Positions 30,001 through 49,692 are shown, numbered from the whole stretch's first letter. The stretch is 49,769 bases of DNA, filler included, from Candidatus Lindowbacteria bacterium RIFCSPLOWO2_12_FULL_62_27 (GCA_001784175.1; 3 parts of 3 records of this genome joined end to end with filler, not necessarily neighbours in it), one strand, 5' to 3'. Notes: generated by a model from the letters alone, not told the origin. Made by a program: numbers and translations.

Positions 30001-33000
30001 CACGACGCCCACGCTGATCTGGACGAGCGACGGGGACACGTTCACGGTGCAGGTGTCGAAATCGGCCGCGTTCACGGCGCTGGTGGACAGCAAGACGACG
30101 ACCGCGTTGACGTACACGCCGTCGGGCGGATATGGCGCCGATACCCATTACTGGCGGATCGTTGCGACAGACGCGGCGGGCAACACGGACACGAGCGCGT
30201 ATCGAAAATTCGAGATCGACACGAGTTTGAGCGTGACATTGTCGAGCCCGGCCGATTCGACGGAGACGAACGACACGACGCCCACGTTTGCCTGGTCGGG
30301 CGACGCCGACACCTTCACGGTCCAGATTTCGAAATCCGAAACTTTCTCGGCGATCTTTGACAGCAAATCCGCGGCGGCATTGAATTATACGCCGTCGCCC
30401 GGCTACGCCGCCGACACCTATTTCTGGCGGGTGCTGGCGACGGACAGGGCCGGCAACGCCGACACGACCGCCTATCGGAAACTCGTCATCGACACGATCG
30501 TCACGGTGAGCCTGTCGAGTCCGGGAGATTCGGCGGAGACGAACGACACGACGCCGGCGTTTACGTGGAGCGGCACGGGCGACACGTACACGATTCAGGT
30601 TTCGAAGTCAGACACGTTCGACGGCATCGTTGACAGCAAGACGACCGCGACGACCGGTTACACGCCCTCGTCAGGGTATGTCGCCGACACGTACTTCTGG
30701 CGGGTGATCGCCGGCGACAAGGCCGGAAATCTGGACACGTCCGCGCGCCGCCGGTTCGTGGTCGACACGATCGTCGCCGTGAGTCTGCTCTTGCCGGCGG
30801 ATTCGACGGAGACGAACGACACGACGCCGGCGTTTACGTGGAGCGGGACCGGCGACACCTACACGATACAAGTCTCCCGGACGACAACCTTCGGCACGAT
30901 ACATGACAGCCGAACGGCGAGCGCGGCGAGTTACACGCCGCCTGCGGGGTACGTCGCGGACACGTACTTTTGGCGAGTCATCGCGTCGGATGACGCCGGC
31001 AACCATGAGACGTCGGCCTACCGGATGGTGGCCGTGGATACCGGCGTGACGGTGAACCTGTCGAGTCCTTCCGACACGTATCGAACGAACGACACGACGC
31101 CGGCGTTCGCGTGGACCGGCACGGGCGACACATACGTGGTTCAGACGTCGCGGACCGCCGCGTTTTCGACGATCTTCGACAGCAGGACGACTTCCGCTCT
31201 GAGTTATACGCCGTCCGGCAGCGTCTATTATTTCGCGGACAGTTATTACTGGCGTGTGATCGCGCAGGATGACGCGGGGAACTACGAGACGGCGTCGGCG
31301 CGTGCGCTGATCGTTGACACGCTGGTGACGGTGAGCGCGAGCAGTCCCGCGGATTCATTGGAGACGCGGGACACGACCCCGACGTTCACGTGGACGGGCG
31401 ACGGCGATACCTACGTGCTTCATATCTCGAAGGCCGACACGTTCGAGCCGCTGTTCGATGGGCTGACGACGACGGGGCTGACATACACGCCGAGTCCCGG
31501 TTATGCGCCGGCAACGTACCACTGGCGGGTGATCGCGCTGGACGTTGCGGGCAATCAGGAGACGACGGCGGCCCGGCGGGTGATCGTCGACACTTCCGTG
31601 ACGGTGGGTTTGACGTCTCCCGCGGATTTGGCGGAGACAAACGACACGACGCCCGCGTTTACGTGGACGGGGGACGGAGACACGTATGTGGTGCAGGTAT
31701 CGAGGGAGGCGGGATTCGGGACAATCGCGGACAGCAAGACCACGATCGCGGCGACGTACACGCCGAGTCCGGGGTACGGAGCGGACACGTACTATTGGCG
31801 TGTCATCGCGAGTGACGATGCGGGGAACACGTCGGCGACGGGATACCGGACGCTGTACGTGGACACGGGCGTGACGGTGAGTCTGACGAGTCCGGCGGAC
31901 GGGCACGAGACGAAGAACGTGACGCCGGGATTCGCGTGGAGCGGGGACGCAGACACGTACGTGGTGCAGGTATCGAGGCAGACGAGTTTCGGGACAATCG
32001 CGGACAGCAAGACGACCAATGGGTTGACTTACGCGCCGGTAAGCGTGTATGCGGCGGACACGTACTACTGGCGTGTGATTGCGAGCGACGATGCGGGGAA
32101 CACGTCGACCGCGGGATATCGAGTGCTGGTGGTGGACACGAAGGTGAGCGTGAGCCAGTCGCTGCCGTTGGACGGTCACGAGACGCGGAACGTGACGGTG
32201 CGGTTCGAGTGGACGGGGGACGGGGATACGTACGTGGTGCAGGTATCGAAGCAGGCGACGTTCGGGACGGTGTATGACAGCCGGACGACGAGTGGGGCGA
32301 GTTACACGCCGTCAAGCGGGTATGCGCACGACACGTACTACTGGCGAGTGATCGCGAGCGACGATGCGGGCAACTACGAGACGACGGTGGCCCGCACCCT
32401 GACGATCGACACGAAGGTGAGCGTGAGTTTAACCGCGCCGGGGGACACGTACGAGACGAAGAACGTGACGGTGCAGTTTGTGTGGACGGGGGATGGAGAC
32501 ACGTACGAGGTGCAGGTTTCGAAGACGGCGGGATTCGGGACGATCCACGACAGCAAGACGACGACGGGCGTGAGTTACATGCCAGCGAGCGGATATCCGC
32601 AGGACACGTACTATTGGCGAGTGGTGGCGCGGGACGAAGCGGGGAACTTTGAGACGAGCGTGACGCGGGCGCTGGTGATCGACACGTCGGTGACGGTGAG
32701 CCTGACGAGTCCGGGGGACACGGCGGAGACGAACGACACAACGCCCGCGTTTGTGTGGAGCGGGACGGGGGACACGTACGTGATCCAGGTATCGAAGTTC
32801 AGCGCGTTCAGCGTTCTGTTTGACGCGTTGACGACAGGCGCAGTGACGTACACGCCGAGTGCGGGCTATGCGTCGGCGACATACTACTGGCGGGTGATCG
32901 CGCAGGACGACGCGGGGAACTACGAGACGGCGTCGGCGCGGTCGCTGATCGTGGACACTTCTGTGACGGCGAGTCTGACGACGCCGGCGGATTTGGCTAA

Positions 33001-36000
33001 GACGAACGACACGACGCCTGCGTTTACGTGGACGGGAGATGGAGACACGTACGTGGTGCAGGTATCGAAGGAGGCGGGCTTCGGGACGATCGCGGACAGC
33101 AGGACGGCGAACGGAGTGACGTACACGCCGAGTCCTGGGTACGGGGCGGACACGTACTATTGGCGGGTGATCGCGAGCGACGATGCGGGGAACACGACGG
33201 TGACGGGATACCGGACGTTGTACGTGGACACGGGAGTGACAGTGAGTTTGACGAGTCCGGTGGACGGGCACGAGACGAAGAACGTGACGCCGGGATTTGC
33301 GTGGAGCGGAGACGGGGACACCTACGAGGTGCAGGTATCGAAGCAGACGAGCTTCGGGACGATGGCGGACAGCAAGACGACGACGGGGCAGAGCTATGTG
33401 CCGGTGAGCGTCTATGCGGCGGACACGTACTACTGGCGAGTGATCGCGACGGACCAGGCGGGGAACACGACGGTGGCGGGATACCGGACGCTGGTGGTGG
33501 ACACGAAGGTAAGCGTGAGCCAGGCGGTGCCGTTGGACGGGCACGAGACGCGGAACGTGACGGTGCGGTTCGAGTGGACGGGGGATGGAGACACGTACGT
33601 GGTGCAGGTATCGAAGCAGGCGGGTTTTGGTGCGGTGTATGACAGCAAGACGACGGGGGTGACGAGCTACACGCCGTCGAGCGGGTATGGGCACGACACG
33701 TACTATTGGCGCGTGATCGCGCAGGACGACGCGGGGAACTACGAGACGACGTCGGCGCGTGCGCTGATGATCGACACGAAGGTGAGCGTGAGTTTAACGG
33801 CGCCGGGGGACACGTACGAGACGAAGAACGTAACGGTGCAGTTTGTGTGGACGGGGGATGGGGACACGTACGAGGTGCAGGTCTCGAAGACGGCGGGATT
33901 CGGGACGATCCACGACAGCAAGACGACGCCGGGCGTGAGTTACACACCGGCGAGCGGATATGCGCAGGACACGTACTTTTGGCGGGTGATTGCGCGGGAC
34001 GAAGCGGGGAACTTTGAGACGAGCGTGACGCGTGCGCTGGTGATCGACACGTCTGTGACGGTGAGTCTGACGAGTCCGGGGGACACGGCGGAGACGAACG
34101 ACACGACGCCGGCATTCACGTGGACGGGGACCGGTGACACATACACGATCCAGGTATCGAAATTCAACACGTTCAGCGTTCTGTTTGACGCGGTGACGAC
34201 GGTGGCGTCGACGTACACGCCGAGTCCGGGGTACGGGCCGGCGACGTATTACTGGCGAGTGATCGCGTGGGACGACGCGGGGAACTACGAGACGGCGGAG
34301 GTCCGAACGCTGATCGTGGACACGAGCGTGAGCGCGAGTCTGACGAGTCCGGCGGACCTGGCGAAGACGAGCGACACGACGCCGGCGTTCACGTGGAGCG
34401 GGGACGGGGACACGTACGAGGTGCAGGTGTCGAAGCAGACGACATTCAGTACGATCACGGACAGCAAGACGGCGAACGGAGTGAGTTACACGCCGACGCC
34501 GGGATACGGCGCGGACACGTACTACTGGCGAGTGATCGCGCGGGACGACGCGGGGAACACGGCGGTGACGGGGTATCGAACGCTGTATGTGGACACGGGT
34601 GTAACGGTGAGTCTGACGAGTCCGTCGGATGGGCACGAGACGAAGAACGTGACGCCTGCGTTCACGTGGAGCGGAGACGGGGACACGTATGAGGCGCAGG
34701 TGTCGAAGCAGACGACATTCGGGACGATCTATGACAGCAAGACGACGAACGGAGTGAGTTACGCGCCGATCGGCGTATACGCGGCGGACACCTACTACTG
34801 GCGGGTGATCGCGTCGGACGCGGCCGGGAACACGACGACGGCGGCATACCGGACGCTGGTGGTGGACACGAAGGTGAGCGTAAGCCAGACGCTGCCGTTG
34901 GACGGCCACGAAACGAAGAACTTGGCGGTGCAGTTTGAGTGGAACGGCGACGGAGACACGTACGAGGTGCAGGTGTCGAAACAGACGACCTTCGGAACGA
35001 TCCACGACAGCAAGACGACAACAGGCGCGAGCTACACGCCCGGGAGCGGATACGCGCACGACACGTATTATTGGCGGGTGATTGCGCGGGACGACGCGGG
35101 GAACTACGAGACGACGACGGCGCGGACGCTGACGATCGACACGAAGGTAAGCGTGAGTCTGACGGCGCCGGGGGACACGTACGAGACGAAGAACGTGACG
35201 GTGCAACTGGTGTGGAGCGGGGATGGGGACACATACGAGGTGCAGGTATCGAAGGCGGCGGCGTTCGGGACGATCCACGACAGCAAGACGACGACGGGGG
35301 TGAGTTACACGCCGGCGAGCGGATACCCGCAGGACACGTACTATTGGCGGGTGATTGCGCGGGATGACGCGGGGAACTACGAGACGAGCGCGATACGAGC
35401 GCTGGTGATCGACACCCTCGTGACGGTGAGCCTGACGAGTCCGGCGGACACGGCGACGACGAACGACACGACGCCTTCGTTTGTGTGGACGGGGACCGGG
35501 GACACGTACACGATCCAAGTATCGAGGTTCAGCACGTTCAGTGTTCTGTTTGACGCGGTGACTGGTTCGTCCCAGAACTACACACCGACCGGATATCCTC
35601 AGGACACATACTATTGGCGGGTCGTTGCGTGGGATGACGCCGCCAACTATGAGACGACGGCCTCCAGAAAACTGATCATTGATACGGATGTGGCCGTCAC
35701 CCAGAGCAATCCTTCGCATCTCTACAAAACAGGCGATACGACTCCGGCTTTTACATGGACCGGCGACGCCGACACGTACGTTTTTCAGATATCGACGAGC
35801 AACGCCTTCATCACGATTTATGACAGTCTGACAACGGCGGCGTTGACGTATACGCCCACGACCGGTTATCCGGTGGATACGTATTACTGGCGGATATCCG
35901 GAATCGACTTGTTGGCCAACCAGGAGACGACGTCGGCCCGCACACTCTTTGTGGATACTGGGCTTACGGTGAACCTGGTCAGTCCGGAAGACACCTATAT

Positions 36001-38149
36001 CACGAACGACACGACTCCCACATTTGTGTGGAGCAGCAACGGCGATACCTTTCTCATTGAAATCAGCCGCAACTATAATTTCTCCACGATCTTCGACAGC
36101 AAGAATACGACAGGCACCACCACGTATACGCCGTCGACCGGATACACGTCCGATACGTATTACTGGCGGGTGGCGGTCGCCGACAATACCGGGAAGGCGG
36201 ACACCGCTCTGCCCTACGGCATCCCGCAGGTTCTGATCATCGATACGGCGCCGCCCGGCGCTCCAACGCTGACCGCGCCTGCCGATTCAAATCAAACGAA
36301 GAACAAAACGCCCGCCTTTACGTGGTCGGGAGATGCCGACACCTATGTCATCGAGATTTCAAAAAGTTATTCGTTCGGCTCGACCGTTTACGCGGAAACC
36401 ACCCTGGCGACGATCACTTCCTCGGCCTCATTCACCCAAGACACCTATTACTGGCGTGTCAGGGGATACGACCACGCGCGCAATGCCGGACCCTCCAGTG
36501 AGACCCGAACCCTACATATTGATACGCAGCTCAGCGTGACACTCTTGACGCCGGCGGAATTGACGGAGACGAACGACACGACGCCGGCATTCGCGTGGAG
36601 CGGCGACGGGGAGACGTATACGTTTCTGCTGTCAAAGACCGTTACGTTCAGCGCCATTTACGACAGCAAGACTACGGCGGCATCGACGTACGCCCCGGAT
36701 ACGGGTTACCCGACGGATACGTATTACTGGCGCGTGAACGCTCAGGACCGGGCGGGGAATTCAGAGACAACCTCCATTCGCAGTGTATGGGTGGACACGG
36801 GGGTATCAGTGAGTTTGACGTTGCCGGCGGACGGGCATGAGACGAGGAACGCGACGGTGCAGATGGCATGGAGCGGAGACGCGGACACGTACGAGGTGCA
36901 GGTATCGAAGGATACGGGGTTCGGAACGATCTACGACAGCAGGACGACGACGGCATTGAGTTACACGCCGGCGAGCGTGTACCCGCAGGACACGTACTGG
37001 TGGCGTGTGACGGCGCGGGACGATGCGGGGAACCAGGAGACGACGGGGTACCGGAGGCTGATGGTGGACACGACGGTGACGGTGAGCCAGACGAGCCCGT
37101 CTGACACGGCGGAGACGAACGACACGACGCCGGCGTTCACATGGGCGGGTACGGGAGACACGTACGTGGTGCAGGTCTCGAATCTGGCGACGTTTGCGAC
37201 GATCTTGGACGTGGCGACGACGACGAGCGCGACGTACACGCCAAGTCCGGGGTACGGGCCGGGCCTGTATTACTGGCGAGTGGTGGGGTGGGACGATGCG
37301 GGGAACTACGAGACGACGGCGACGCGAGTGGTGACGGTGGACACGAAGGTGAGCGTGAGTTTGAGCAGTCCGGTGGACACGGCGGAGACGAACGACACGA
37401 CGCCGACGTTTACGTGGACGGGAGACGGAGAGACGTACGTGGTGCAGGTATCGACGAGCGCGGGATTCGGGACGATTTACGACAGCAAGGCGACGGGGGG
37501 ACTGACGTACACGCCGAGTCCGGGGTACGCGACGGACACGTACTATTGGCGCGTGGTGGTGAACGACACGGCGGGGAACTACGAGACGGCGTCGTCGCGG
37601 CGGTTGAAGATCGATTTGGGAGTGAACGTGAGTTTGACGAGTCCAGTGGACGGGCATGAGACGAAGAACGTGATCCCGACGTTTGAATGGAGCGGAGACG
37701 GGGACACATACACGATCCAGATATCGAAGTCGAGCGCGTTTGCGACGATCCATGACAGCGTGACGACGACGGGATTGAGTTACACGCCGGCGAGCATCTA
37801 CCCGGCGGACACATACTACTGGCGTGTGAGCGCACAGGACAACGCTGGGAACAGCAACACGGCGACTTCACGGACGCTGTACATGGACACGATCGTGAGT
37901 GTGAGTTTGGCGGGACCCGGGGATGGGCATGAGACGAAGAACACGACGCCGACGTTCGTGTGGGCGGGAGACGGTGACACGTATGTGGTGCAGGTGACGA
38001 AGCAGGGGACGCTGTATGACAGCAAGACGACGACCTCGCTGAGCTACACGCCGTCGGCGGTGTATCCGACGGACACGTACCAGTGGCGTGTGATCGCGCA
38101 GGACGACGCGGGGAACTACGAGACGACGGGGTACCGGAGCGTGTGGGTG
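24059..38149 (+). CDS. Giant secreted/surface protein fragment (at least 4697 aa): five CBM11/CIA30-like + Ig-like modules, then about 36 FN3-like repeats; both ends missing
   Basis: Single uninterrupted frame across the whole contig. Recurring L.FW..G / WRR..IPL..F / YIDDI.F modules, then about 91-aa units P.F.W.GDGDTY.VQVS...F....DS.T...SYTP...Y..DTYYWRV.A.D.AGN. Confidence 0.88.
28292..38149 (+). repeat. Coding tandem array of about 36 units of about 273 bp, including a 1365-bp x3 higher-order repeat (31595-about 35690)
   Basis: 36 W-R motif units counted in the translation. Units at 31595 and 32960 align at 1365 bp, and antisense shadow ORFs recur at 32374/33739/35104 with the same period. 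Confidence 0.9.
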
Positions 38150-38249
38150 NNNNNNNNNNNNNNNNNNNNNNNNNNNNNNNNNNNNNNNNNNNNTTAATTA
38201 ATTAANNNNNNNNNNNNNNNNNNNNNNNNNNNNNNNNNNNNNNNNNNNN
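38150..38249. other. Artificial contig spacer (N run, TTAATTAATTAA, N run)
   Basis: Same 100-nt linker design as 23959-24058. Confidence 0.97.
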
Positions 38250-39094: not shown

Positions 39095-39157
39095 GTGCTT
39101 TACTGAGAGGGGATATCGAATAGCGTGGGCTATTCACAGCATGGAGGATTTTATTTG

Positions 39158-41941
39158 ATGGCGACCTCTCAGACGCAACCCATCTCGACGATAGACCTTT
39201 CGCCCGCGCAAGAGCAAATCATCTCCCACCGCGGCGCGCCCCTCCAGATCGTCGCGTGCGCGGGGTCGGGCAAGACCGAATCCATCTCGCGGCGGATTGC
39301 CTCTCTCATCGTCGAGGGCGCCGATCCCGCGTCCATCATCGCGTTCACATTCACAGAAAAGGCGGCCGCCGAACTCAAACAGCGGGTTGTCAAACGCGTT
39401 GAGGAAAAAATGGGCCGCGAGTTTCTCGACCGGCTCGGACCCATGTTCGTCGGAACCATCCACGGCTACTGTTTCCGCCTGCTCCAGCTCAACGTCCCCC
39501 AATACGGCAACCACGACGTTCTCGACGAGCACCGGCATGCCGGTCTCCTGAGCCGCGAATACAAACGGCTGGGGCTGTCCAAACTCGGATCCAAACACTG
39601 GGAACCGATACGGGATTTTATCCGATCGGTTGACGTCATCAGCAACGAGGTGATTGATCCGGCCGCACTAGACGGGACGCCTCTGGGCGAATGCTACCGC
39701 GAGTATCGTGACACGCTCGACCGATACCATTTCCTGAGCTATGGCCTCCTGATCACCTGCGCAATCGAAGCGCTGGAGGATCCGGCCATCTACGAAAAAA
39801 TCCACGGGCCGCTTCGGCATCTCATCGTCGACGAATACCAGGACATCAACCCCGCGCAGGAACGGCTGATTGAACTTCTGGCCCGCGACCCCGTCCAGAT
39901 ATGCGTTGTCGGCGACGACGACCAGTCCATCTATCAGTGGCGCGGGTCGGACATTTCGAACATCCTGAAATTTCAAACCCGCAGATCGACGACACGGGCG
40001 ATCGTACTGGCCGACAACCGCCGGTCCCGCCCGCAGATCGTCCGGACCGCCAACGCGTTCGCGTCGAGCATCCCCGGGCGATTGCCCAAACAGATGCAAC
40101 CGTCCCGGCCCGCCGGCGAGAACGAAATTGTTGCGTGGTCAGCCGATACTGCGGAGGACGAAGCCGACCAAATAGCCGAGACGATTGAGCGTATCCATGC
40201 GAAAGGTTACCGCTACCGCGACATCGCCGTGCTCTTTCGTTCCGTCCGCACGTCTGCGCCGCCTCTCATCGACGCGTTTCGGGCCAGAAACATTCCCTTT
40301 GCCTGTGGCGGCCGCACGGGACTGTTTTTGCATCCCGAAATTTCGTATTTCGGAGAACTTTTTTCGTGGATCGGCGACGGCGACTGGCGGGACGCGCGGT
40401 TCGAACAAAAACGCAAGGCCGATATTGACCGCATTGTTGCCGGTCTCGACGCCTGTTTCGGAAACGGCAAACCCATCCCGGGACTCAAAAAATATATGGA
40501 AGACTGGAAGACCTTCGTGCTCCGCACCCGACAGCCGGTCAGTCTCGTCGGGGATTTTTACAAGCTCCTCTATAAACTCGGCGCGGAGTCCATAAACCTC
40601 GGGACGCAGGAGGGCGCTGCGCGATTCGGCGCGTTCGCGCGGTTTTCCCAACTCCTCGCCGATTTCGAGCACGTCACCCGCCGCGGCCGGTACGACCAGG
40701 AAAACGGCCGGCGCGTATTTCGTCCGGGCCAGGATGGCGGCAAGTTCTATTTCCAGCGGCTTGCCAATTATCTGATCCATTACGCATTCGCCGCCTACGA
40801 GGACTACGAGGGCGAACCGGCGTCCGACCTTGATGCCGTCTCCGTCATGACGGTCCATCAGGCCAAAGGTCTTGAATGGCCGGTCGTGCTTATGCCGGCG
40901 CTGGTGAAGGGCCGCTTTCCGACGTCTCTATGCGGCCGCCCGCAGGAGTGGCTCCTGCCGCCCGGGATTTTCAGCGAACAAACCCGCAAACGCTACGAAG
41001 GAAGCGAGACCGAAGAGCGACGCCTGTTTTACGTCGCCCTCACCCGCGCGCGCGACTGCGTCTATCTGTCATACTTTCAGCGGAAAAAAAATAAATTCAA
41101 ACCGTCGCCGTTACTGACGGAGGTTGCCGGCACAAACATCCTTGCGTTTGCCGTGCTTCCTCTCCCCGGCACGCCGGAGCCGGCCGGCCAGAAGGAAATC
41201 CCGCCGCTTCAAATTTCGTTCTCGCACCTGGCCGCATTCGAGGATTGCGGGCTTCGCTATCAGTTCGGGACCGTTTTCGGATTTCAGCAGGAATTGGCAG
41301 TCGAACTCGGCTACGGCCGCGCAATCCATCATGTCCTTCGCCGGGTGGCGGAGGAGGCGCAAAGCAAGGGCAGTATCCCAACCGCTCCGGAATTGAAGTC
41401 TCTGGTTGATGCTGAATTTTATCTGCCGTTTGCAAACACCCCGGCCTTCGAACAGATGTATCGCTCGGCCACGCGGATGACCCGGCTGTACGTCAACGAT
41501 TATTCCGGCGATCTCATGCGGGTCTGGGCGGTCGAGCGCCCGTTCGAACTGCACTTTGAGGACGGCATCGTGGCCGGCCGCGCCGACGTCATTCTGGATC
41601 GCGAAAACGACACGCCGGGCGCGCTGGCCATCGTCGACTACAAGGTCACGCACGATCCCGAACGCGAGGAACGCTACCGCCGGCAACTGTCCATCTATAC
41701 GGCCGCCGGCCGCGGCGAAGGCCTGCGGGTCGACGCCGCCTATCTGCACGACTTGAGCGACAGCGCGCGCCGGCCGGTGGAGATCGGGCCGGAAGTCTTG
41801 AAAAAGACCGTGCAGGAGGTTTCCATCTCTGTGAAAGCCATTCGGCGGGGGAAATACGAGGCGAATCCAGAAGAGCAAAAATGCCGGGCGTGCGAATTTC
41901 TGACGATCTGCGCCAAACGCGCCTGCCGGGTGGGAGATTGA
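39158..41941 (+). CDS. UvrD/PcrA-like SF1 helicase fused to C-terminal PD-(D/E)XK nuclease with 4-Cys Fe-S staple
   Basis: Helicase motifs ACAGSGKT, TFTEKAA, VDEYQD, GDDDQSIYQWRG, TVHQAKGLEW and EERRLFYVALTRA. Nuclease motifs SFSHL..FEDC, VERPF, GRAD, IVDYK, QLSIY and CRACEFLTIC. Confidence 0.9.
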   Translation: MATSQTQPISTIDLSPAQEQIISHRGAPLQIVACAGSGKTESISRRIASLIVEGADPASIIAFTFTEKAAAELKQRVVKRVEEKMGREFLDRLGPMFVGTIHGYCFRLLQLNVPQYGNHDVLDEHRHAGLLSREYKRLGLSKLGSKHWEPIRDFIRSVDVISNEVIDPAALDGTPLGECYREYRDTLDRYHFLSYGLLITCAIEALEDPAIYEKIHGPLRHLIVDEYQDINPAQERLIELLARDPVQICVVGDDDQSIYQWRGSDISNILKFQTRRSTTRAIVLADNRRSRPQIVRTANAFASSIPGRLPKQMQPSRPAGENEIVAWSADTAEDEADQIAETIERIHAKGYRYRDIAVLFRSVRTSAPPLIDAFRARNIPFACGGRTGLFLHPEISYFGELFSWIGDGDWRDARFEQKRKADIDRIVAGLDACFGNGKPIPGLKKYMEDWKTFVLRTRQPVSLVGDFYKLLYKLGAESINLGTQEGAARFGAFARFSQLLADFEHVTRRGRYDQENGRRVFRPGQDGGKFYFQRLANYLIHYAFAAYEDYEGEPASDLDAVSVMTVHQAKGLEWPVVLMPALVKGRFPTSLCGRPQEWLLPPGIFSEQTRKRYEGSETEERRLFYVALTRARDCVYLSYFQRKKNKFKPSPLLTEVAGTNILAFAVLPLPGTPEPAGQKEIPPLQISFSHLAAFEDCGLRYQFGTVFGFQQELAVELGYGRAIHHVLRRVAEEAQSKGSIPTAPELKSLVDAEFYLPFANTPAFEQMYRSATRMTRLYVNDYSGDLMRVWAVERPFELHFEDGIVAGRADVILDRENDTPGALAIVDYKVTHDPEREERYRRQLSIYTAAGRGEGLRVDAAYLHDLSDSARRPVEIGPEVLKKTVQEVSISVKAIRRGKYEANPEEQKCRACEFLTICAKRACRVGD

Positions 41942-41943
41942 TC

Positions 41944-43035
41944 ATGCTGAAACGAAAAACAAAGGCCTCATCCAAAGTGGTGCGCGGCCGGTCGGTTCCC
42001 CATACGCCGGTAGAAGCGTCGTTTGCCGAAGTGATCAGCCTTATCGAATCCGCGCGCCGGCGGGCATATCAAGCCGTGAACACCGAACTCGTCGGCCTCT
42101 ATTGGCAGGTCGGTGAATACATCAGCCGCAAGTTGGAATCTGCCACATGGGGTGAAGGGGTGGTCGAACAATTGGCCGATTACATCGCGCGCAACCGTCC
42201 AGACATGAGGGGATTCACCCGCGCCAGCCTCTTTAGAATGCGGCAGTTCTATGACACCTATTGCCGGAACAAAAAAGTCGCACCACTGGTGCGACAATTG
42301 CCATGGACCCACCATCTGATGATTCTCGGACGATGCAAGCGTGATGAAGAGCGCGAGTTCTACCTTCGTCTCGCACTACAGGAACGCTGGGGGAAAAGGG
42401 AACTCGAACGCCAGCTCAAAGGCGCCCTATTCGAACGCGCAATCTTGTCACCACCAAAAGTCTCGCCGGTGGTGCGACAATTGCATCCCGCCGCTTTGAC
42501 GGTCTTCAAAGACGCCTACCTGCTGGATTTTCTCGACCTGCCCTCCGGACATTCCGAGGGCGATCTGCAACGCGGATTGGTGAGCGATCTGCGCCGGTTC
42601 CTCATCGAACTGGGCCGCGATTTCTGTTTTGTGGGCGAGGAATATCTCGTCCAGGTCGGCGGCCGGGATTTTCGGCTGGACCTGCTCTTCTATCATCGTG
42701 AACTGCAATGTCTCGTCGCGTTCGAACTCAAGATCGACGAGTTTCAGCCGGAGTATCTTGGGAAACTGGAATTTTACCTTGAGGCGCTCGACCGGGACGT
42801 GCGCAAACCGCATGAGCGTCCTTCCATCGGTGTGCTCCTCTGCGCAACCAAAGACGGCGAGGTCGTCGAGTATGCATTGAGCCGGTCACTCTCCCCCGCG
42901 CTCATCGCCGAGTACAAGACCCGGCTCCCGGACAAGAAACTGCTTCAGTCCAAACTCCACGAGTTCTACGCGCTGGCTGAATCTAATGTCTCGCGCGATG
43001 ACACGCCTCCAAGGCCGAAGCGGCGACGTAAATGA
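41944..43035 (+). CDS. YhcG/DUF1016 family PD-(D/E)XK nuclease
   Basis: AVNTELVGLYWQVG, WGEGVV, LPWTHH, REFY, KDAYLLDFL, FLIELGRDFCFVG, LDLLFYHR and FELK...FQPEYLGKL.FYL. Confidence 0.92.
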   Translation: MLKRKTKASSKVVRGRSVPHTPVEASFAEVISLIESARRRAYQAVNTELVGLYWQVGEYISRKLESATWGEGVVEQLADYIARNRPDMRGFTRASLFRMRQFYDTYCRNKKVAPLVRQLPWTHHLMILGRCKRDEEREFYLRLALQERWGKRELERQLKGALFERAILSPPKVSPVVRQLHPAALTVFKDAYLLDFLDLPSGHSEGDLQRGLVSDLRRFLIELGRDFCFVGEEYLVQVGGRDFRLDLLFYHRELQCLVAFELKIDEFQPEYLGKLEFYLEALDRDVRKPHERPSIGVLLCATKDGEVVEYALSRSLSPALIAEYKTRLPDKKLLQSKLHEFYALAESNVSRDDTPPRPKRRRK

Positions 43036-43068: not shown

Positions 43069-46043
43069 ATGCCCAGACCTCGAAAATCTTCCGGTACCGG
43101 AGGCGTTAAAACCGCGGACTACCGACACACCGGGAAAAAGCGGACGAATATCCCGACGGCGAAAATGGCGGCCGAGGGGAAAATTCCGGCGGCGCCGAAG
43201 GCGCAATACCACTATAACCCGCACCTGCCGCCGGTTCTGCGGTTTGATCCGGCGGGCAAGGCCGACAAACTGCCCGACCTCATCGCCGCCGCCGGCCGGC
43301 GCGCGCTGACGGCGGACGAACAGAAACTTCTGGCCGAGGCGCTCCGCAACCACCAGCCGTGGCTGGAGTGGGCGACGAAACGGGAACAGCACGACAAGGG
43401 ATTTTTCGAAGTCGATCCGGTGGCGTTGCACATCCACGAACGCGTGAGCGCCCAGGCCATCGTCCGCGCGGCGACGCGCGAGGACGTCCAGCGCAATCTC
43501 TTCGCCGACCCCGAACAGCCGTATCAGGAAGCCGTGCAATTCTACAAACACGACGTCGACTGGGCCAACCGCCTCATCCTCGGCGATTCCCTGCAGGTCA
43601 TGTCATCCCTCGCGCGCCGTGAAAATCTCGCGGGGAAGGTGCAGATGATTTATATGGATCCGCCGTATGGGATTAAGTTTGGGAGCAATTTTCAAGCTGA
43701 AATAAACAGGCAAGAAATGAAAGAGAAAGACTCTGATCTAACTCGACAACCAGAAATGGTCAAAGCATATCGCGATACATGGGTGTTCGGTATTCACTCA
43801 TATTTGTCATATTTACGATCCAGACTGTTCTTATGTAAAGAACTGCTTTCAACGTCGGGCAGCATTTTTGTGCAAATTAGCGATGTTAATGTTCACGTTC
43901 TTCGAAGTATGTTGGACGAAGTCTTCGGATTTTCCAATTTTATTTCACAAATCTCTTTTGCCAAAACTAGTGGTTCTGCTGATAAATATCTTGCTACTAT
44001 CGGAGATTTTCTACTCTGGTATGCAAAAGATAAAGAACAACTTAAATATCGGCAATTACATTTCATCAAGACTGACAAAACATTGGCGCAACAATATCGA
44101 TTCAGAATGCATTCGAATGGCTCGGTTGGTAGAGCCGGAGATCCAAAAACCGAGACCGACGAGCAGTTATTATCCCGATTTATGCCAGACAATCTTACTG
44201 GTCAGGGTGAAAACGGAAATCTTGATGATCAAGAAGTTTGGGGAAAACGATTTCGACCGACGACTGGTAGACACTGGTCGACCACTAATGAGGGAATACG
44301 CCGGCTGTTTCACTGCGAACGACTTTTTCTTAGTGAAGAACGTTTGGCATGGCGTAAGTACGTTTCAGATTATCCAGTGTCTGCGTACGGTAATTTTTGG
44401 ACTGATACGGCTCAAGGTGGCCGCGCGTTTGACAGAGTGTATGTTGTCCAAACAGCCGATAAAATCATCGAACGTTGTGTTCTCATGACCACCGATCCTG
44501 GTGACATCATCCTCGATCCCACCTGCGGTAGCGGGGCCACCGCATACGTTGCAGAGCAATGGGGCCGGCGCTGGATCACGATTGACACGAGCCGGGTCGC
44601 ACTTTCAATAGCGCGCCAGAGACTTCTCACCGCGAAGTATGAGCATTATAAAACTAAGGACGGGTCCGGTAATCCGGCCACTGGATTCAATTACAAGACC
44701 GTGCCGCACATCACGCTCAAAAGCATCGCCCAGAACACCAACCTCGATCCGGTCTTCGCCAAGCACGAGCCGGTTCTCAACGCGACGCTGGCGGCGTGCA
44801 ACAAGGCGCTCGCTTCGGTTTCGGCCGACGCGCGGCGGAAACACTCAAGGCGAAATTGCAGGAAAAGCAGACCCGAGAGGGCAAGCGGTCGATCACCGAC
44901 GCGGACCGGCGGCGGTGGGAATTGCCGGAGAAGAAATTTGAGCATTGGACGGTTCCATTCGATACCGATCCAGACTGGCCCAAGGCACTGCAGACGGCGG
45001 TCGCCGAATACCGCAAGGCGTGGCGGGCGAAAATGGACGAGGTGAACGCCTGCATTTCGGCCAACGCCGAGCAGGAGGAATTGGTCGACCGACCGGAAGT
45101 TTCGAAAGGCGTGCTTCGCGTCAGCGGGCCGTTCACGGTCGAGGGCGTGATGCCGGAGGAGTTGAGTTTGGGCGAAAAGGGTCTTTACGATCCAACGCCC
45201 AACGAATTCGAAGACGATGCTGGCGGGCCGGTGGAGCAGATGAAAAATATTCATGCCTATCTCACGCGCATGGTCCAGTGCCTGCGGTCGGACGGCGTGA
45301 CGTTCATGAACAACCAGCGAAAAAAATTCGCGCGGATCGAGCCGCTGTTTGAGTCCGGCACCGGAAGCATCATTCATGCTGAAGGCGTCTGGGAAGAGCA
45401 GGACGGGGCCGGGCCCAACACGATCGCCGTCGGATTCGGGCCGCAGTACGGGCCGGTGACGGCACAGCAGGTCGAGGAACTTGTGCGGGCGAGCAAACGA
45501 TATGACGAACTTGTGATCGCCGGATTCAGTTTCGACGCCGCCGCCACCAACGCCATTCAAGAGGCCGCCCATCCCAAACTTCGCATCCACCAGGCCTACA
45601 TCCGTCCCGACATCAACCCCGCGATGGACGGCCTCCTCAAAGACACGCCCAACAGCCAGCTCTTCACCGTATTCGGCCAGCCCGACGTCGAAGTCAAAAA
45701 GAACAAGGACGCGGATTTTGTCTGCACGCTCAAAGGCGTCGACATCTACGACCCTCTCACCAGCGCCATTCGTTCTACCGGCGCAGAAAAAGTGGCGGCG
45801 TGGTTTTTGGACACGGACTATGACGGCCGATGTTTCTGCGTCACGCAAGCCTTCTTCCCCGACCAGGACGCATGGGAAAAAATCGCGAAGGCCCTCGGAT
45901 CGAGCGCCGACACCGAAGCGTTCGATGCGTTCAAGGGCACGACCTCCCTGCCGTTTCCGAAAGGCAAGCACAATCGAATCGCCGTCAAGGTGATCGACCC
46001 GCGCGGGAATGAAGTCATGTCGATTCAGACGCTCAAGGACTGA
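43069..46043 (+). pseudogene. mod: Type III-like adenine DNA methyltransferase (Mod), split by a frameshift near 44840 (ORFs 43069-45045 and about 44841-46043)
   Basis: NRLILGDSLQVM, VQMIYMDPPYGIKF (motif IV) and DPTCGSGATA (motif I) lie in frame 1. The family-typical C-terminus (RVSGPFTVE, GPQYGPV, WFLDTDYDGRCF, IAVKVIDPRGNE) continues in the -1 frame. This may be a sequencing error rather than a real lesion. Confidence 0.75.
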
Positions 46044-46044
46044 T

Positions 46045-49000
46045 ATGGCAAAAGGCGTCAAATCTCGCGGCCTGCCGACGCACATGGATGAGCCGCCGGC
46101 GGATTGGGTTCCAACGCAGGCGGTCGATGAACCGGTCATCAACAAACCTTATGAAGAACCGGCCAAACACTGGACGTACAAGGATGGCGTCCCGGACTTA
46201 AAATCTGAACGGCGGCCGGCGAGTTACTACTACAAGACGCGCAAAACCGGCGCGGCGCAGGAAGATCTTTTTGCCGAGGAAGAACGCGCGCTGTTGCCGC
46301 TGGTGAACCGGCTCCGCAAGGACGTGAAACGATGGCGCGCGTCGGCCTATCGGGGCGCGTCGCCGGTGAGCAAGGATCTTCTGGCGTACTGGTGGAGAGC
46401 AGACCGGTCGCGGCGGCTGTTTTTCTGCCAGCTTGAAGCGGTCGAGACGTTCATCTATCTGCTGGAGTTGGCGATTCCGGGCCGACTGCCGAGCACCGGA
46501 TTTAAATCATTTGAAGTCGACGCTGGAAATCTGGATCGACTGCTCAAGGGCGTGCGCCCGGATTTTCCGGAAATTGCGCCGGATTATTGTCCCCGGCTGG
46601 TCGACATTCCCGCCGATGCCGGCCTTCAGGGTTTGCGTCGTCTTGGATGCAAGATGGCGACAGGAAGCGGCAAGACGATTGTGATGGCGATGACGATCGC
46701 GTGGGCATTCTGCAACCGCGGCCGAAATCCGGCCACTCTGCATTTTCCCAATGGCGTTCTTGTCTGCGCGCCGAATCTGACGGTCAAAGAGCGCCTGCAG
46801 GTGCTCCGGCCGGATCATCCTGAAAATTATTACGACGCGTTCGATCTCGTGCCGGCCAAATACCGGGAACTGATGGGCGTGGGCCGGGTGCTGATCACGA
46901 ACTGGCACGTCTTCGCGCCGAAAAGCCCGAACGTCGAGGGCGAAAAGAGTTACAAGATCGTGAACAAGGGCGAGGAGACTGCGGAGGCGTTCGCGAAGGA
47001 TCGTCTCGGGGAACTTGCCGCGCGAACGCCCATTCTCGTGCTGAACGACGAGGGCCATCACTGCTGGCGGCCGAACAACAATTCGGCGTCAAAGGCCGAG
47101 GAGGATTTGACAAAGGAGGAGAAGGCGGAACTGGAGGAGGATGCCGAAGAAGCCCGAGTGTGGCTGGCCGGTCTTGACCGGATCAACAATTCGGGTCTGG
47201 CGGGCGGGAAAAATCCGGGGATTCTTGCGGCGTTGGATCTTTCAGCCACGCCGTTTTATCTATCCAACAGCGGCTATCCGGAAGGTGATCCGTTCCCATG
47301 GCTGGTCAGCGATTTCGGGTTGGTGGATGCCATCGAGTGCGGCATCGTCAAAATCCCGCGTATGCCGGTCCGGGATGAAACGGAATCGAAAGACGAAGTC
47401 GGCCGGCCTGATCCGAAATATTTTCACCTGTGGCGGCATATCAATGACGGCCTTCGGCCGGTGGACCGCGCGGCGAATCGGCGGCCAAAACCGGAGGCGG
47501 TGTATCGCGAGGCCGAAGGCGCGCTTCTGATGCTGGCGGGCCAGTGGAAAAAACGGTTTGAAGAGATTCAGGGCGCAAGTCCGGGGGAGAAGATCATTCC
47601 ACCGGTGTTGATTATCGTTTGCGACAACACCGAGGTGGCCGACATTTTTTATCAGAGAATCAGCGGCGAGCGGGAAGAGGAGGTGTTGGGTGCGGACGGC
47701 AAGAAAGTGGAGAAACGGAAAATATATGAAGCCGGCAAAATTCTTGCGGAGTTTTCGAACACCGAGAATTTCCGGCCCACGGTGCGGATCGACACCAAAC
47801 TTCTGAAAAAAATTGAGACCGAGGAAGGCGAAACCAAAGACGAGGCGGCGCAGGCCTTGCGGGCAATCATCAACACCGTCGGCAAACGCGGCATGCCCGG
47901 CGAGCAAATCCGGTGCGTCGTGTCCGTGGGAATGCTCACCGAAGGGTGGGATGCGACGAATGTGACGCACATTCTCGGCGTGCGGGCGTTTCAGAGTCAA
48001 CTTTTGTGCGAGCAGGTAGTCGGTCGGGGCCTTCGGCGGATGGACTACACCGCGCTGGATCCGGAAGGCCGGCTGGTGGCCGAGCATGTGGATGTCTATG
48101 GGATCCCATTCTCGCTGATTCCGTTCAAGGGCAAGCCGAAAGATATAGAGCGGCCCGACCCCGTCTATCATCACGTATTTGCGGTGCCGGAACGCGCGTC
48201 GCTCGAGATTCGCCTGCCGGTGGTCGAGAGTTACACGTATGATCTGAAGGGCAGCGGGATTTCGTGCGATGTGGACAATCTCGACGACCTGGTGGTGGAC
48301 GATGAGCCGACGAAAGTCTATCTGGCCGTAACGCGCGGCTATCAGGATGACCCCTCCTCCACGCCGTCGGGAGATTTCATCCAGCAAACGCGAGAGAATT
48401 TTTACGCGACGGTACGATTTCAGCAAGTGGTGTTTCGGCTGGCGCAGATGATCGTGGACGATTTGATCGCCGGCGGCCGGGGCGCGGGCGTTGAGGCGCT
48501 TAAAAAGTCGCTTTTAGCCCGGCACCAGGTTTTTCCGGATGTTCTACGGATCGTGCAGGAATACATCAACAAGAAGGTCCGGTTCGTCAAAGGCGTGGAC
48601 CCGAGGGAGCTGGCGCTGGAAAAATATTCTCAACTTCTGCGAGAGCGCGTTCGGGCTGGAATTCTGCCGGCGGCGGCCAGCGCGGAGGCGCCGCTTTTGC
48701 CGGTTGTGAACTCGTACAAGCCCTTCGCCTCGACGACGGACGTGAATTTCCGGACGACCCGGCCAGTAGTGAAACTGGAAAAGAGCCATCTCAATCTCGC
48801 GGTGATCCACAGCGATTGGGAGAAGGACGCGATCGCCATTCTGGAGGACAGCGACGACGTCGAGTTTTTCACACCGAACGACCAGCATGTCGGATTGGTC
48901 GTCCCCTACGATTATCTGGGCGGCCAGCACCACTACGAGCCGGATTTCATCGTGCGCCTGCGCGGCGGCAAAATCCTCCATCTCATTCTGGAGATCAAAG

Positions 49001-49692
49001 GGCGGGCCGGGGAAATCCACGATGAGGACCGCGTGCACGCGAAAAACGCGGCGGCGAAAAAATGGGTGGCCGCGGTCAACAACGCCGGCCGATACGACCG
49101 CTGGAATTTTGAGATCTGCAAGGAACTCGCGAACCTGCGCGTGACGTTGAAGCGCTGCGCTGACGAGGGCGAGCCGGCGGCGGCCAAGGTTGTGCCATTC
49201 CGGTTCGTGACCCCGCGCGCCGGCGAGCATTTCAAGACGTGCGTGCCGCTGGTGAGTCTGCGGGCGGCGGCCTCCAACTTCAGTAATGAACAATTCAGCT
49301 GGGATCAGATGGGAGAATGGGCGGACGAGTGGGTGTCGTTCGAACCAAAGACGCGCTTTGAGGATGGAATGTTTGTCGCCCGAATTCGCGGCGACTCGAT
49401 GGAACCGACGATCCCGGCGTCTGCCTACTGTCTATTCCGCAGGCCTCGGCCCGGGTCGCGGCAGGGGCGGATCGTGTTTGTGATGCACTCGGGCGTGAGC
49501 GACCCATTCACGGGCGGCCAGTACACGGTGAAAGAATATTCGAGCGAAAAAGCCGTGGACCCCGAGACGGACTGGCATCACACGCGGATCACCCTGAAAC
49601 CGCACAACCGAAAATACGACCCGATCGTTCTGACGCCGGAGGCCGAGGATGAGGTGCGGGTGATCGCGGAGTGGGTGGAGGTTGTGGGTTAA
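46045..49692 (+). CDS. res: Type III-like restriction endonuclease (SF2 helicase + PD-(D/E)XK) with C-terminal LexA/S24-like peptidase domain
   Basis: LFFCQLEAVET, KMATGSGKT, NDEGHH, LSATP, MLTEGWD and EQVVGRGLRR helicase motifs. YEPDFIV...LEIKG nuclease. C-terminal RGDSMEP...YTVK...LKPHN.KYDPI (S24 Ser-Lys dyad). Confidence 0.9.
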   Translation: MAKGVKSRGLPTHMDEPPADWVPTQAVDEPVINKPYEEPAKHWTYKDGVPDLKSERRPASYYYKTRKTGAAQEDLFAEEERALLPLVNRLRKDVKRWRASAYRGASPVSKDLLAYWWRADRSRRLFFCQLEAVETFIYLLELAIPGRLPSTGFKSFEVDAGNLDRLLKGVRPDFPEIAPDYCPRLVDIPADAGLQGLRRLGCKMATGSGKTIVMAMTIAWAFCNRGRNPATLHFPNGVLVCAPNLTVKERLQVLRPDHPENYYDAFDLVPAKYRELMGVGRVLITNWHVFAPKSPNVEGEKSYKIVNKGEETAEAFAKDRLGELAARTPILVLNDEGHHCWRPNNNSASKAEEDLTKEEKAELEEDAEEARVWLAGLDRINNSGLAGGKNPGILAALDLSATPFYLSNSGYPEGDPFPWLVSDFGLVDAIECGIVKIPRMPVRDETESKDEVGRPDPKYFHLWRHINDGLRPVDRAANRRPKPEAVYREAEGALLMLAGQWKKRFEEIQGASPGEKIIPPVLIIVCDNTEVADIFYQRISGEREEEVLGADGKKVEKRKIYEAGKILAEFSNTENFRPTVRIDTKLLKKIETEEGETKDEAAQALRAIINTVGKRGMPGEQIRCVVSVGMLTEGWDATNVTHILGVRAFQSQLLCEQVVGRGLRRMDYTALDPEGRLVAEHVDVYGIPFSLIPFKGKPKDIERPDPVYHHVFAVPERASLEIRLPVVESYTYDLKGSGISCDVDNLDDLVVDDEPTKVYLAVTRGYQDDPSSTPSGDFIQQTRENFYATVRFQQVVFRLAQMIVDDLIAGGRGAGVEALKKSLLARHQVFPDVLRIVQEYINKKVRFVKGVDPRELALEKYSQLLRERVRAGILPAAASAEAPLLPVVNSYKPFASTTDVNFRTTRPVVKLEKSHLNLAVIHSDWEKDAIAILEDSDDVEFFTPNDQHVGLVVPYDYLGGQHHYEPDFIVRLRGGKILHLILEIKGRAGEIHDEDRVHAKNAAAKKWVAAVNNAGRYDRWNFEICKELANLRVTLKRCADEGEPAAAKVVPFRFVTPRAGEHFKTCVPLVSLRAAASNFSNEQFSWDQMGEWADEWVSFEPKTRFEDGMFVARIRGDSMEPTIPASAYCLFRRPRPGSRQGRIVFVMHSGVSDPFTGGQYTVKEYSSEKAVDPETDWHHTRITLKPHNRKYDPIVLTPEAEDEVRVIAEWVEVVG

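Follow-up and report, generated by a model that had tools for sequence, protein, structure and literature searches.

A LexA-type S24 module on a Type III-like restriction subunit and on many other DNA-targeting defence enzymes: a candidate self-cleaving off-switch

The stretch of DNA analyzed here (referred to as the window; 49,769 nt with filler, three parts of records of the Candidatus Lindowbacteria bacterium RIFCSPLOWO2_12_FULL_62_27 genome, GCA_001784175.1, joined end to end) encodes at positions 46045..49692 a Type III-like restriction subunit, Res, of 1215 residues, in which a superfamily 2 (SF2) motor and a PD-(D/E)XK nuclease are followed by a C-terminal S24 module; this and all other features given below lie on the + strand. 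We found that the module is a genuine LexA-fold Peptidase_S24 domain, far beyond chance, and that it is not a one-off but a portable cassette attached to many DNA-targeting defence enzymes. With not quite an even chance, in our estimate, it acts as a self-cleaving off-switch of the enzyme that carries it, probably triggered by RecA on single-stranded DNA (ssDNA) and possibly baring an ssrA-like Ala-Ala degron.

The module and the enzymes that carry it

The module comprises residues 1049-1215 (49189..49689), from a conserved PFR strand to the C-terminal VIAEWVEVVG, as delimited by Pfam PF00717, an alignment of 76 copies and an AlphaFold model. Pfam Peptidase_S24 (PF00717) matches residues 1087-1209 with 36.1 bits against a cut-off of 23.3 (E 5.6e-9), and together with the open frame of 1215 residues this bears out the original prediction, made from the sequence alone, that the Res protein at this place carries a LexA-type S24 domain; the lack of any S24 match, which had been named beforehand as grounds for giving the idea up, was not what we observed. 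A profile search of PDB sequences returned only marginal LexA matches (E 0.004), so that a comparison of folds was needed to settle the identity of the domain. For residues 1031-1215, an AlphaFold2 model based on an alignment of 46 relatives reached a mean predicted local distance difference test score (pLDDT) of 88.3 and a predicted template modelling score of 0.82. The top Foldseek matches of this model in the PDB were all LexA, lambda cI or UmuD, 28 of them at E<=1e-3. Alignment with VIA-align gave Z 11.9 for T. maritima LexA (3k2z_B; root-mean-square deviation 2.6 Å, 117 residues aligned), Z 11.6-11.8 for E. coli LexA (11.6 for 1jhc; model residues 36-185 on LexA residues 75-197), Z 11.5 for RecA-bound lambda cI and Z 10.8 for UmuD', with signal peptidases at Z of about 6-7. 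The structure prediction that had been suggested as a check thus returned a LexA-like fold. A two-copy complex prediction of the module gave no answer (score 0.00, mark 0.42) and speaks neither for nor against dimerization.

The rest of the protein belongs to the BPTD_3080 family of restriction endonucleases. The corresponding equivalog model, NCBIfam NF046055, matches Res with 877.2 bits against a cut-off of 800 and spans residues 192-1037 (model positions 147-968 of 970), which leaves the S24 tail outside the model; the PADLOC REase_III model matches as well (E 3.5e-10). The SF2 helicase-like motor was recognized by its motifs (46654..47061), a Walker A sequence MATGSGKT (46654-46677, residues 204-211) and a DEAH-type box, here of the form DEGH, in NDEGHH (47044-47061, residues 334-339). 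Of the two profile checks suggested earlier, Peptidase_S24 came out above its cut-off, while Pfam ResIII stayed just below it with 22.2 bits, 0.3 short of the required 22.5. The nuclease motifs YEPDF (residues 964-968) and LEIKG (residues 982-986) are located at 48934..49002, and Pfam RE_endonuc scores 17.6 bits on Res of the window, under its cut-off, and 129 bits on the relative P0180. Among Res relatives the motifs are retained almost throughout (GSGKT in 17 of 18, DEGHH and PD in 18 of 18 each, E-x-K in 17 of 18). As the nuclease motifs stand upstream of the S24 domain, a tail of about 180-230 residues follows the nuclease, with about 180 residues beyond the family core; the tail proposed originally is therefore present, and rather longer than the roughly 170 residues first assumed. 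Residues of about 1013-1048 (49081..49188) link nuclease and module, as judged from the end of the family model at residue 1037 and from S24-less relatives, which end 0-37 residues past the matching point, and the first 20 modelled residues (1031-1050) show mean pLDDT values of 59 and 69, as for a flexible linker. The res start codon (ATG, 46045) follows the stop codon of the methyltransferase gene mod (TGA, 46041-46043) by one base, and an upstream ATG at 46009 is a possible alternative start. Our literature searches found no paper characterizing any member of the BPTD_3080 family.

That the module is not particular to Type III enzymes, a point absent from the original prediction, became apparent when the tail alone was searched against 5.8 billion proteins, restricted to lengths of 668-2127 residues. 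This search gave 81 matches among 598 candidates, which we sorted by length, listed Pfam domains and source names, not each assignment being verified: 49 are Res-like, 11 are Type I HsdR subunits, 8 are Type ISP or IIG enzymes (N6_Mtase, Eco57I, Type_ISP_C), 11 are DEAD/MZB (YprA-type) helicases of about 1970 residues, and one each is a HIT-DUF3427 helicase and a Schlafen-type ATPase. Across these partners the same module subfamily recurs with about 40-64% identity. A HMMER search of the module against 1.84 billion cluster representatives returned 1564 matches at E<=1e-3, 873 at E<=1e-10 and 91 at E<=1e-30. Among the best 150 of these matches 149 proteins were new, and the 72 of them with at least 300 residues were scanned with Pfam. 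A partner domain was recognizable in 41 of the 72 (the other 31 showed S24 only, or nothing, at E<=1e-5): Type_ISP_C in 12, an SLFN-g3 helicase in 7, MZB in 5, parts of HsdR in 3, MmeI/Eco57I/N6_Mtase domains without Type_ISP_C, SLFN_AlbA_2, PLDc_2, HNH_4 and ResIII helicases in 2 each, and McrBC, RE_LlaJI, RE_endonuc and DUF3427 in one each. Every partner identified is a nuclease or motor that targets DNA or nucleic acid, and no TIR, SIR2, HEPN or pore/membrane effector was found among the 41. The 35 shorter representatives comprised five helix-turn-helix (HTH) proteins of the HTH_XRE-S24 type, which is the classic layout of a self-cleaving repressor, seven fragments of fusions and 23 proteins with S24 alone.

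With respect to position, 215 of the 231 copies are C-terminal, at most 40 residues following the module; four HsdR proteins have it internally, at residues of about 270-480 with 742 residues after it. Three proteins (P0104, P0132 and P0184) share an extra domain of about 140 residues past the module, with 47-55% mutual identity and no Pfam match in the scans made. Databases record the fusion architecture only implicitly, the source names of the fusions ranging from 'type III restriction enzyme' through 'S24 family peptidase' to 'SOS-response transcriptional repressor LexA'. When mobile elements were searched by tblastn, 72,556 plasmid records yielded one match, in Halomonas sp. PA16-9 (NZ_CP040452.1, L081 6971-9441), and 50,697 phage records yielded none at E<=1e-5; from these numbers the subfamily is not evidently phage-borne in that collection. 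In the Halomonas locus, which belongs to a cultured organism, the S24 module comes after an open reading frame (ORF) for a Schlafen group 3 helicase (686 residues) and overlaps it in another frame; the two are either one fusion broken by a frameshift or a split form of it. An upstream PIN_8 gene of the same locus is also in two pieces.

Conservation and joint loss of the cleavage site and the catalytic pair

LexA cleaves itself at the bond Ala84-Gly85 (PMC6590174). In the module of the window the corresponding region reads CVPLVSLRAAASNF (residues 1066-1079, 49240..49281), and from the family consensus and the analogy with LexA the scissile bond is inferred to be Ala1076|Ser1077 (49270-49275): the range aligned with LexA begins at the Cys of CVPL, by which the AAAS strand corresponds to the LexA cleavage-site region. 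Ser1118 of GDSMEP (residues 1116-1121; codon 49396..49398) is the predicted nucleophile, on the basis of its conservation and of the GxSM of LexA chains aligned in the profile search, and Lys1163 of YTVKEY (residues 1160-1165; codon 49531..49533) is by its conservation the predicted general base. The strings VPLVSLRAAAS, GDSMEP and TVK, from which the domain had first been recognized, are all located where they had been read.

Residue counts were taken from 231 module copies in 230 proteins aligned to the module profile, in 218 of which the site itself is aligned. The consensus of the site is C-V-P-L-x-x-L-(R/K)-A-A-A-G-x-(F/W), and positions P5-P1 most often read LRAAA (62 copies), LKAAA (54), LQAAA (17) or LEAAA (16). 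Of the 218 aligned sites, 214 have Ala at P1. At P1' 202 carry Gly and 10, among them that of the window, carry Ser, the other residues being Thr (2) and His, Asn, Arg and Glu (one each), so that AAAG is indeed the norm, as had been surmised, and the AAAS of the window is a minority form. The window copy with its Ala-Ser thus departs from the strict Ala-Gly (or Cys-Gly) bond which the family as a whole does show. The Ser nucleophile is kept in 225 of the 231 copies and the Lys base in 222. All five copies with Ser replaced by Ala have Arg in place of Lys, and the four of them in which the site is aligned read TIAR, TYVS, TLAG and SMAE, whereas all ten copies with Ser at P1' retain the Ser-Lys pair and A-A-A at P3-P1. 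AAAS is found also on P0061, a YprA-type helicase.

For the Res family we collected 80 related genomic loci, 20 of them with the module, and calculated a FastTree phylogeny from 67 complete Res cores (66 loci and the window) after removal of the module; 14 loci with fragmentary, frame-broken or duplicate sequences were left out (L005, L014, L015, L028, L029, L030, L042, L049, L053, L056, L062, L068, L073 and L076). A branch with 100% local support separates the 19 module-bearing rows (18 loci and the window), which are spread over at least eight phyla, from the others, and from this we can infer that the fusion was gained or lost once in the Res family and then moved horizontally. The other 48 of the 67 family members have no module and end 0-37 residues past the core. 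Within the module-bearing clade Ser and Lys are kept in 13 of 19 members, 12 of which have A-A-(G/S) at the site and one (L051) AVAT. The remaining six (L012, L016, L024, L032, L034 and L038) lack site, Ser and Lys together, with Ser changed to Ala or Asn or deleted and Lys changed to Arg in all six. They occupy five separate positions in the tree, only L024 and L034 being sisters, and each combines a full-length Res with intact GSGKT, DEGHH, PD and ExK motifs and a single-ORF Mod. The hydrophobic pattern that defines the fold is retained in these dead modules. AAAS together with an intact Ser-Lys pair is found also in L001, the closest relative of the window (66% identity in the core). A search of all 80 related loci for a second copy of the module or a separate module gene found neither.

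The joint loss of site, Ser and Lys indicates that the site and the catalytic pair act as one unit, a coupling which, as far as residue patterns can tell, is what self-cleavage would predict. Moreover, as the dead-module relatives have intact motor and nuclease motifs, Res should not need cleavage for its activity. The regulatory, self-cleaving role that the original prediction had assigned to the module is in this way supported in part, by the coupled loss in 6 of 19 members and by the recurrence on unrelated defence enzymes; as to the direction of the switch, which had been left as either off or on, the comparative data favour off and not on.

A candidate off-switch and its alternatives

According to the off-switch mechanism that we propose, the module would cut its own chain at L-(R/K)-A-A-A|G (A-A-A|S in the window copy), RecA-ssDNA filaments would stimulate this cut as they do in LexA, lambda cI and UmuD, and the cut would disarm the enzyme. 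This would amount to restriction alleviation, sparing unmethylated host DNA that arises from recombinational repair. By analogy RecA is the most likely trigger; the same subfamily also forms HTH repressors. The direction of the switch is supported by four observations: the dead-module relatives look fully functional; most of the family does without the module; in the four HsdR proteins with an internal module a cut would break the enzyme apart; and all partners are DNA-directed nucleases or motors, which are hazardous to a damaged and partly unmethylated chromosome. The AAAS of the window may be functional, as judged from its occurrence in L001 and the retention of Ser and Lys.

In a more speculative last step the body of the enzyme would be left ending in ...L-R-A-A-A-COOH, and ClpXP would then destroy the whole enzyme, because the new end resembles ssrA and the end of the LexA N-terminal fragment. 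Such a degron would account both for how the whole enzyme could be disarmed by the removal of its tethered tail alone and for the almost constant placement of the module at the C-terminus. Self-cleavage of LexA bares residues that target its fragments to ClpXP and Lon (PMC6590174), the N-terminal fragment of a staphylococcal phage CI is bound by ClpX only after autocleavage (PMC10584840), the C-terminal degrons described for E. coli ClpXP have an Ala-Ala end with an upstream Leu and with Ala or Arg favoured at position 2 (PMC10862746), and ClpXP performs restriction alleviation on HsdR of EcoKI (PMC4231737, PMC11109961). In its widest form, which we regard as doubtful, the proposal would describe a portable self-destruct cassette, in which a RecA-ssDNA-triggered cut, an ssrA-like end and removal by ClpXP would serve no fewer than twelve unrelated families of defence enzymes (Type I, ISP, IIG, III, McrC, LlaJI, PLD, HNH, Schlafen-type, DUF3427 and YprA); the dead copies would then mark lineages that opted out of the switch.

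Several points weigh against the off-switch. P1' of the window copy is Ser and not Gly, and Asp at P1' gives the non-cleavable LexA mutants used in crystallography (PDB titles; PMC11787620, where G91D is inactivating). The AlphaFold model draws LRAAASN (module residues 42-48) as a short helix. Some LexA-like proteins are cleaved without RecA, as reported for IrvR (PMC7101444). Loss of the tethered domain at the C-terminus would not alone inactivate Res, which makes the proposal depend on the conjectural degron step, and at position 3 the published ClpXP degron consensus has Leu rather than Ala (PMC10862746); the strong conservation of AAA may reflect nothing but the specificity of the protease. 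Six relatives keep the domain after loss of catalysis, hence it should have a non-catalytic role too, and the pattern points to a selected function such as dimerization or RecA binding. Furthermore, the fusion in Res is one evolutionary event, so that counts inside the clade are not independent. Finally, mod is frameshifted in the window and the local system is possibly inert.

The last of these points, which the original prediction had not covered, leads to the alternative that survives best: the Type III system may be a relic in the source organism, and its S24 tail functionless there whatever it does elsewhere. We consider such decay of the locus quite possible, though short of probable; it concerns the local copy only and can be combined with any other reading. 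The mod gene (43069..46043) adjoins res in the same orientation and is split between two ORFs, 43069..45045 and 44796..46043, with the switch of frame at about 44826-44877. In relatives mod is one ORF of 1005-1061 residues, and tblastn alignments of these change frame in the mod of the window, while PADLOC MTase_III (PDLC03632) is matched at positions 17-612 by one part and at 613-980 by the other. No differing letter or insertion or deletion was seen in the frame-switch stretch in contigs of four runs with four study codes (groundwater and soil metagenomes); this agreement excludes a one-off assembly slip, though the runs are not fully independent, as they may include the source samples of the window. 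A DUF1016 gene inserted between an upstream helicase-nuclease gene and mod (both neighbours are described below) and the Ser at P1' add to the case for decay, and from the frameshift together with this Ser the local system may be weakened or silent. Against a relic stands res itself, a clean frame of 1215 codons with all motor, nuclease and peptidase motifs. Likewise the 5' ORF of mod keeps the whole N6_N4_Mtase domain (E 9.5e-32) and the 3' part is open over 415 codons, so that a split Mod could still work; the C-terminal part of Mod, about 400 residues, has no Pfam match.

A second alternative accepts the module as useful and denies the cut: in the window copy Ala-Ser would stop self-cleavage, and the domain would serve as a dimerization surface, as the C-terminal domain of LexA does, or as a handle for RecA filaments. 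Ser at P1', where 202 of 218 copies have Gly, the block of LexA cleavage by Asp at the same position, and the six relatives which keep the fold without site, Ser and Lys (Lys always being replaced by Arg), as if a non-catalytic function could be selected, are all consistent with this. We nevertheless judge it unlikely. The copies with Ser at P1' keep the Ser-Lys pair and A-A-A in ten of ten cases, whereas the dead copies lose everything jointly, and AAAS, being common to the window and L001 and recurring on P0061, looks tolerated rather than decayed.

An on-switch appears improbable as well. Here the module would hold Res and the other fused effectors inactive until an infection signal, RecA or a phage recombinase on ssDNA, triggered cleavage and freed the nuclease. 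A precedent is UmuD, which such a cut activates (PMC6590174), a C-terminal domain tethered beside the nuclease could block it, and a sensor of infection would be useful on the YprA/MZB, Schlafen-type and PLD/HNH enzymes, which have no methylation-based self-recognition. However, the six Res proteins with dead modules would then be locked off, yet they are full-length, their motor and nuclease motifs are undamaged and so is their Mod; no module at all is needed by 48 of the 67 members placed in the tree; the 41 partners include no effector of abortive infection (TIR, SIR2, HEPN, pore); and in the four HsdR proteins the cut would break the chain within the enzyme.

Very improbable, finally, is a protease or decoy acting in trans, whose target would be another protein (the repressor of a phage, an anti-restriction protein or a further enzyme with such a module), or which would rival LexA for RecA filaments. 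The conserved catalytic pair and the documented cleavage between subunits of the UmuD dimer speak for it, but an internal LexA-like site that co-varies with the pair would be needless for a pure trans protease, and there is one module per locus, with no separate module gene near S24-less systems.

Genomic neighbourhood, related systems and meaning

The defence cluster at the right end of the window consists of a helicase-nuclease gene, a DUF1016/YhcG gene, mod and res, in this order. The first gene (39125..41941) encodes a fusion of a UvrD-type helicase (UvrD-helicase, E 8.6e-57) with a Cas4-like PD-(D/E)XK nuclease (PDDEXK_1, E 2.2e-22) of 938 residues. Considering only loci with a full upstream flank, such a gene precedes 15 of 17 S24-bearing and 6 of 34 S24-less loci, the latter six forming one Planctomycetota clade; this enrichment rests on only two clades, and we did not count it as a functional link between the helicase-nuclease gene and the S24 module. 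The arrangement suggests a three-gene system of helicase-nuclease, mod and res, for which no description was found. The DUF1016/YhcG PD-(D/E)XK gene (41881..43035; YhcG_C E 2.7e-54, DUF1016_N E 1.4e-42, PADLOC candidate PDC-S02 E 1.4e-132) occurs at the equivalent position in none of the 80 related loci and therefore looks like a recent insertion. Housekeeping genes, for example for citrate synthase, sulfite reductase, V/A-type ATPase subunits and phosphoketolase, fill the left 24 kb of the window, and this content indicates a bacterial chromosome with the defence cluster at the right end of the window. Two further ORFs were recorded. One at 24068-38197 encodes 4709 residues with Ig-like repeats (Big_13 in nine stretches, E 1.3e-140; Big_3_2; Ig_Rha78A_N), probably a giant surface protein, and in one at 13567-15786 hexokinase domains 1 and 2 are fused with a histidine phosphatase domain (His_Phos_1), an unusual combination.

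Compared with LexA, lambda cI and UmuD, the module has the same fold, Ser-Lys pair and strand-loop with an Ala-Gly type bond about 40 residues before the Ser, and its subfamily too occurs as HTH-S24 repressors. It differs in being attached to the C-terminus of an ATP-dependent restriction subunit of about 1000 residues instead of a DNA-binding domain, in its site AAA|G (AAA|S here) with a Cys-Val-Pro-Leu lead-in, and in the conserved upstream PFR strand. With the Type III systems EcoP15I and EcoP1I the locus shares the mod-res operon in which the res start abuts the mod stop, a Res with an SF2 motor followed by a C-terminal PD-(D/E)XK nuclease, and a Mod matching the PADLOC Type III model; unlike theirs, its Res falls in the separate BPTD_3080 family, just under the ResIII cut-off of Pfam, its Mod has about 1000 residues, a UvrD/PD-(D/E)XK gene usually stands before it, and the S24 tail is extra. 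S24-less Res proteins of the same family (Limnoglobus roseus and Roseomonas aerilata; L054, L057) are 41-53% identical over residues of about 22-1040 and have the same Mod neighbour, but they end 0-37 residues past the core, and the S24-bearing proteins form a branch apart from them.

A functional parallel concerns alleviation. Like the action of ClpXP on EcoKI, the proposed off-switch would disarm an ATP-dependent enzyme when unmodified host DNA follows damage or recombination (PMC4231737, PMC11109961), and the predicted Ala-Ala-ended enzyme would feed the same protease. However, ClpXP recognizes HsdR stalled on DNA, with no self-cleavage and no S24 domain, whereas here the trigger would be built in; the likeness is one of analogy, not homology.

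Full-text literature searches gave no description of restriction or other defence enzymes fused to a domain of the S24 or LexA type, and term look-ups in the surveys of YprA helicases and McrBC returned no such fusion, although the supplementary tables of these surveys, which the look-ups did not cover, may list some. The mentions of 'S24' in the Millman et al. preprint that turned up are table numbers and not the peptidase, and the LexA mention found in the Druantia III preprint refers to an assay tool only. As far as found, the parts are known, while their combination, its breadth over defence families and the pattern of coupled loss are new.

How defences that cut DNA spare the damaged or newly made DNA of their own host is known in some depth for Type I enzymes alone, where ClpXP is responsible. 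If the off-switch proposed here is true, a LexA-type module borne by the effector itself would be a simple post-translational link from the SOS signal to immunity, and with this cassette on so many enzyme families the link would be a general design principle.

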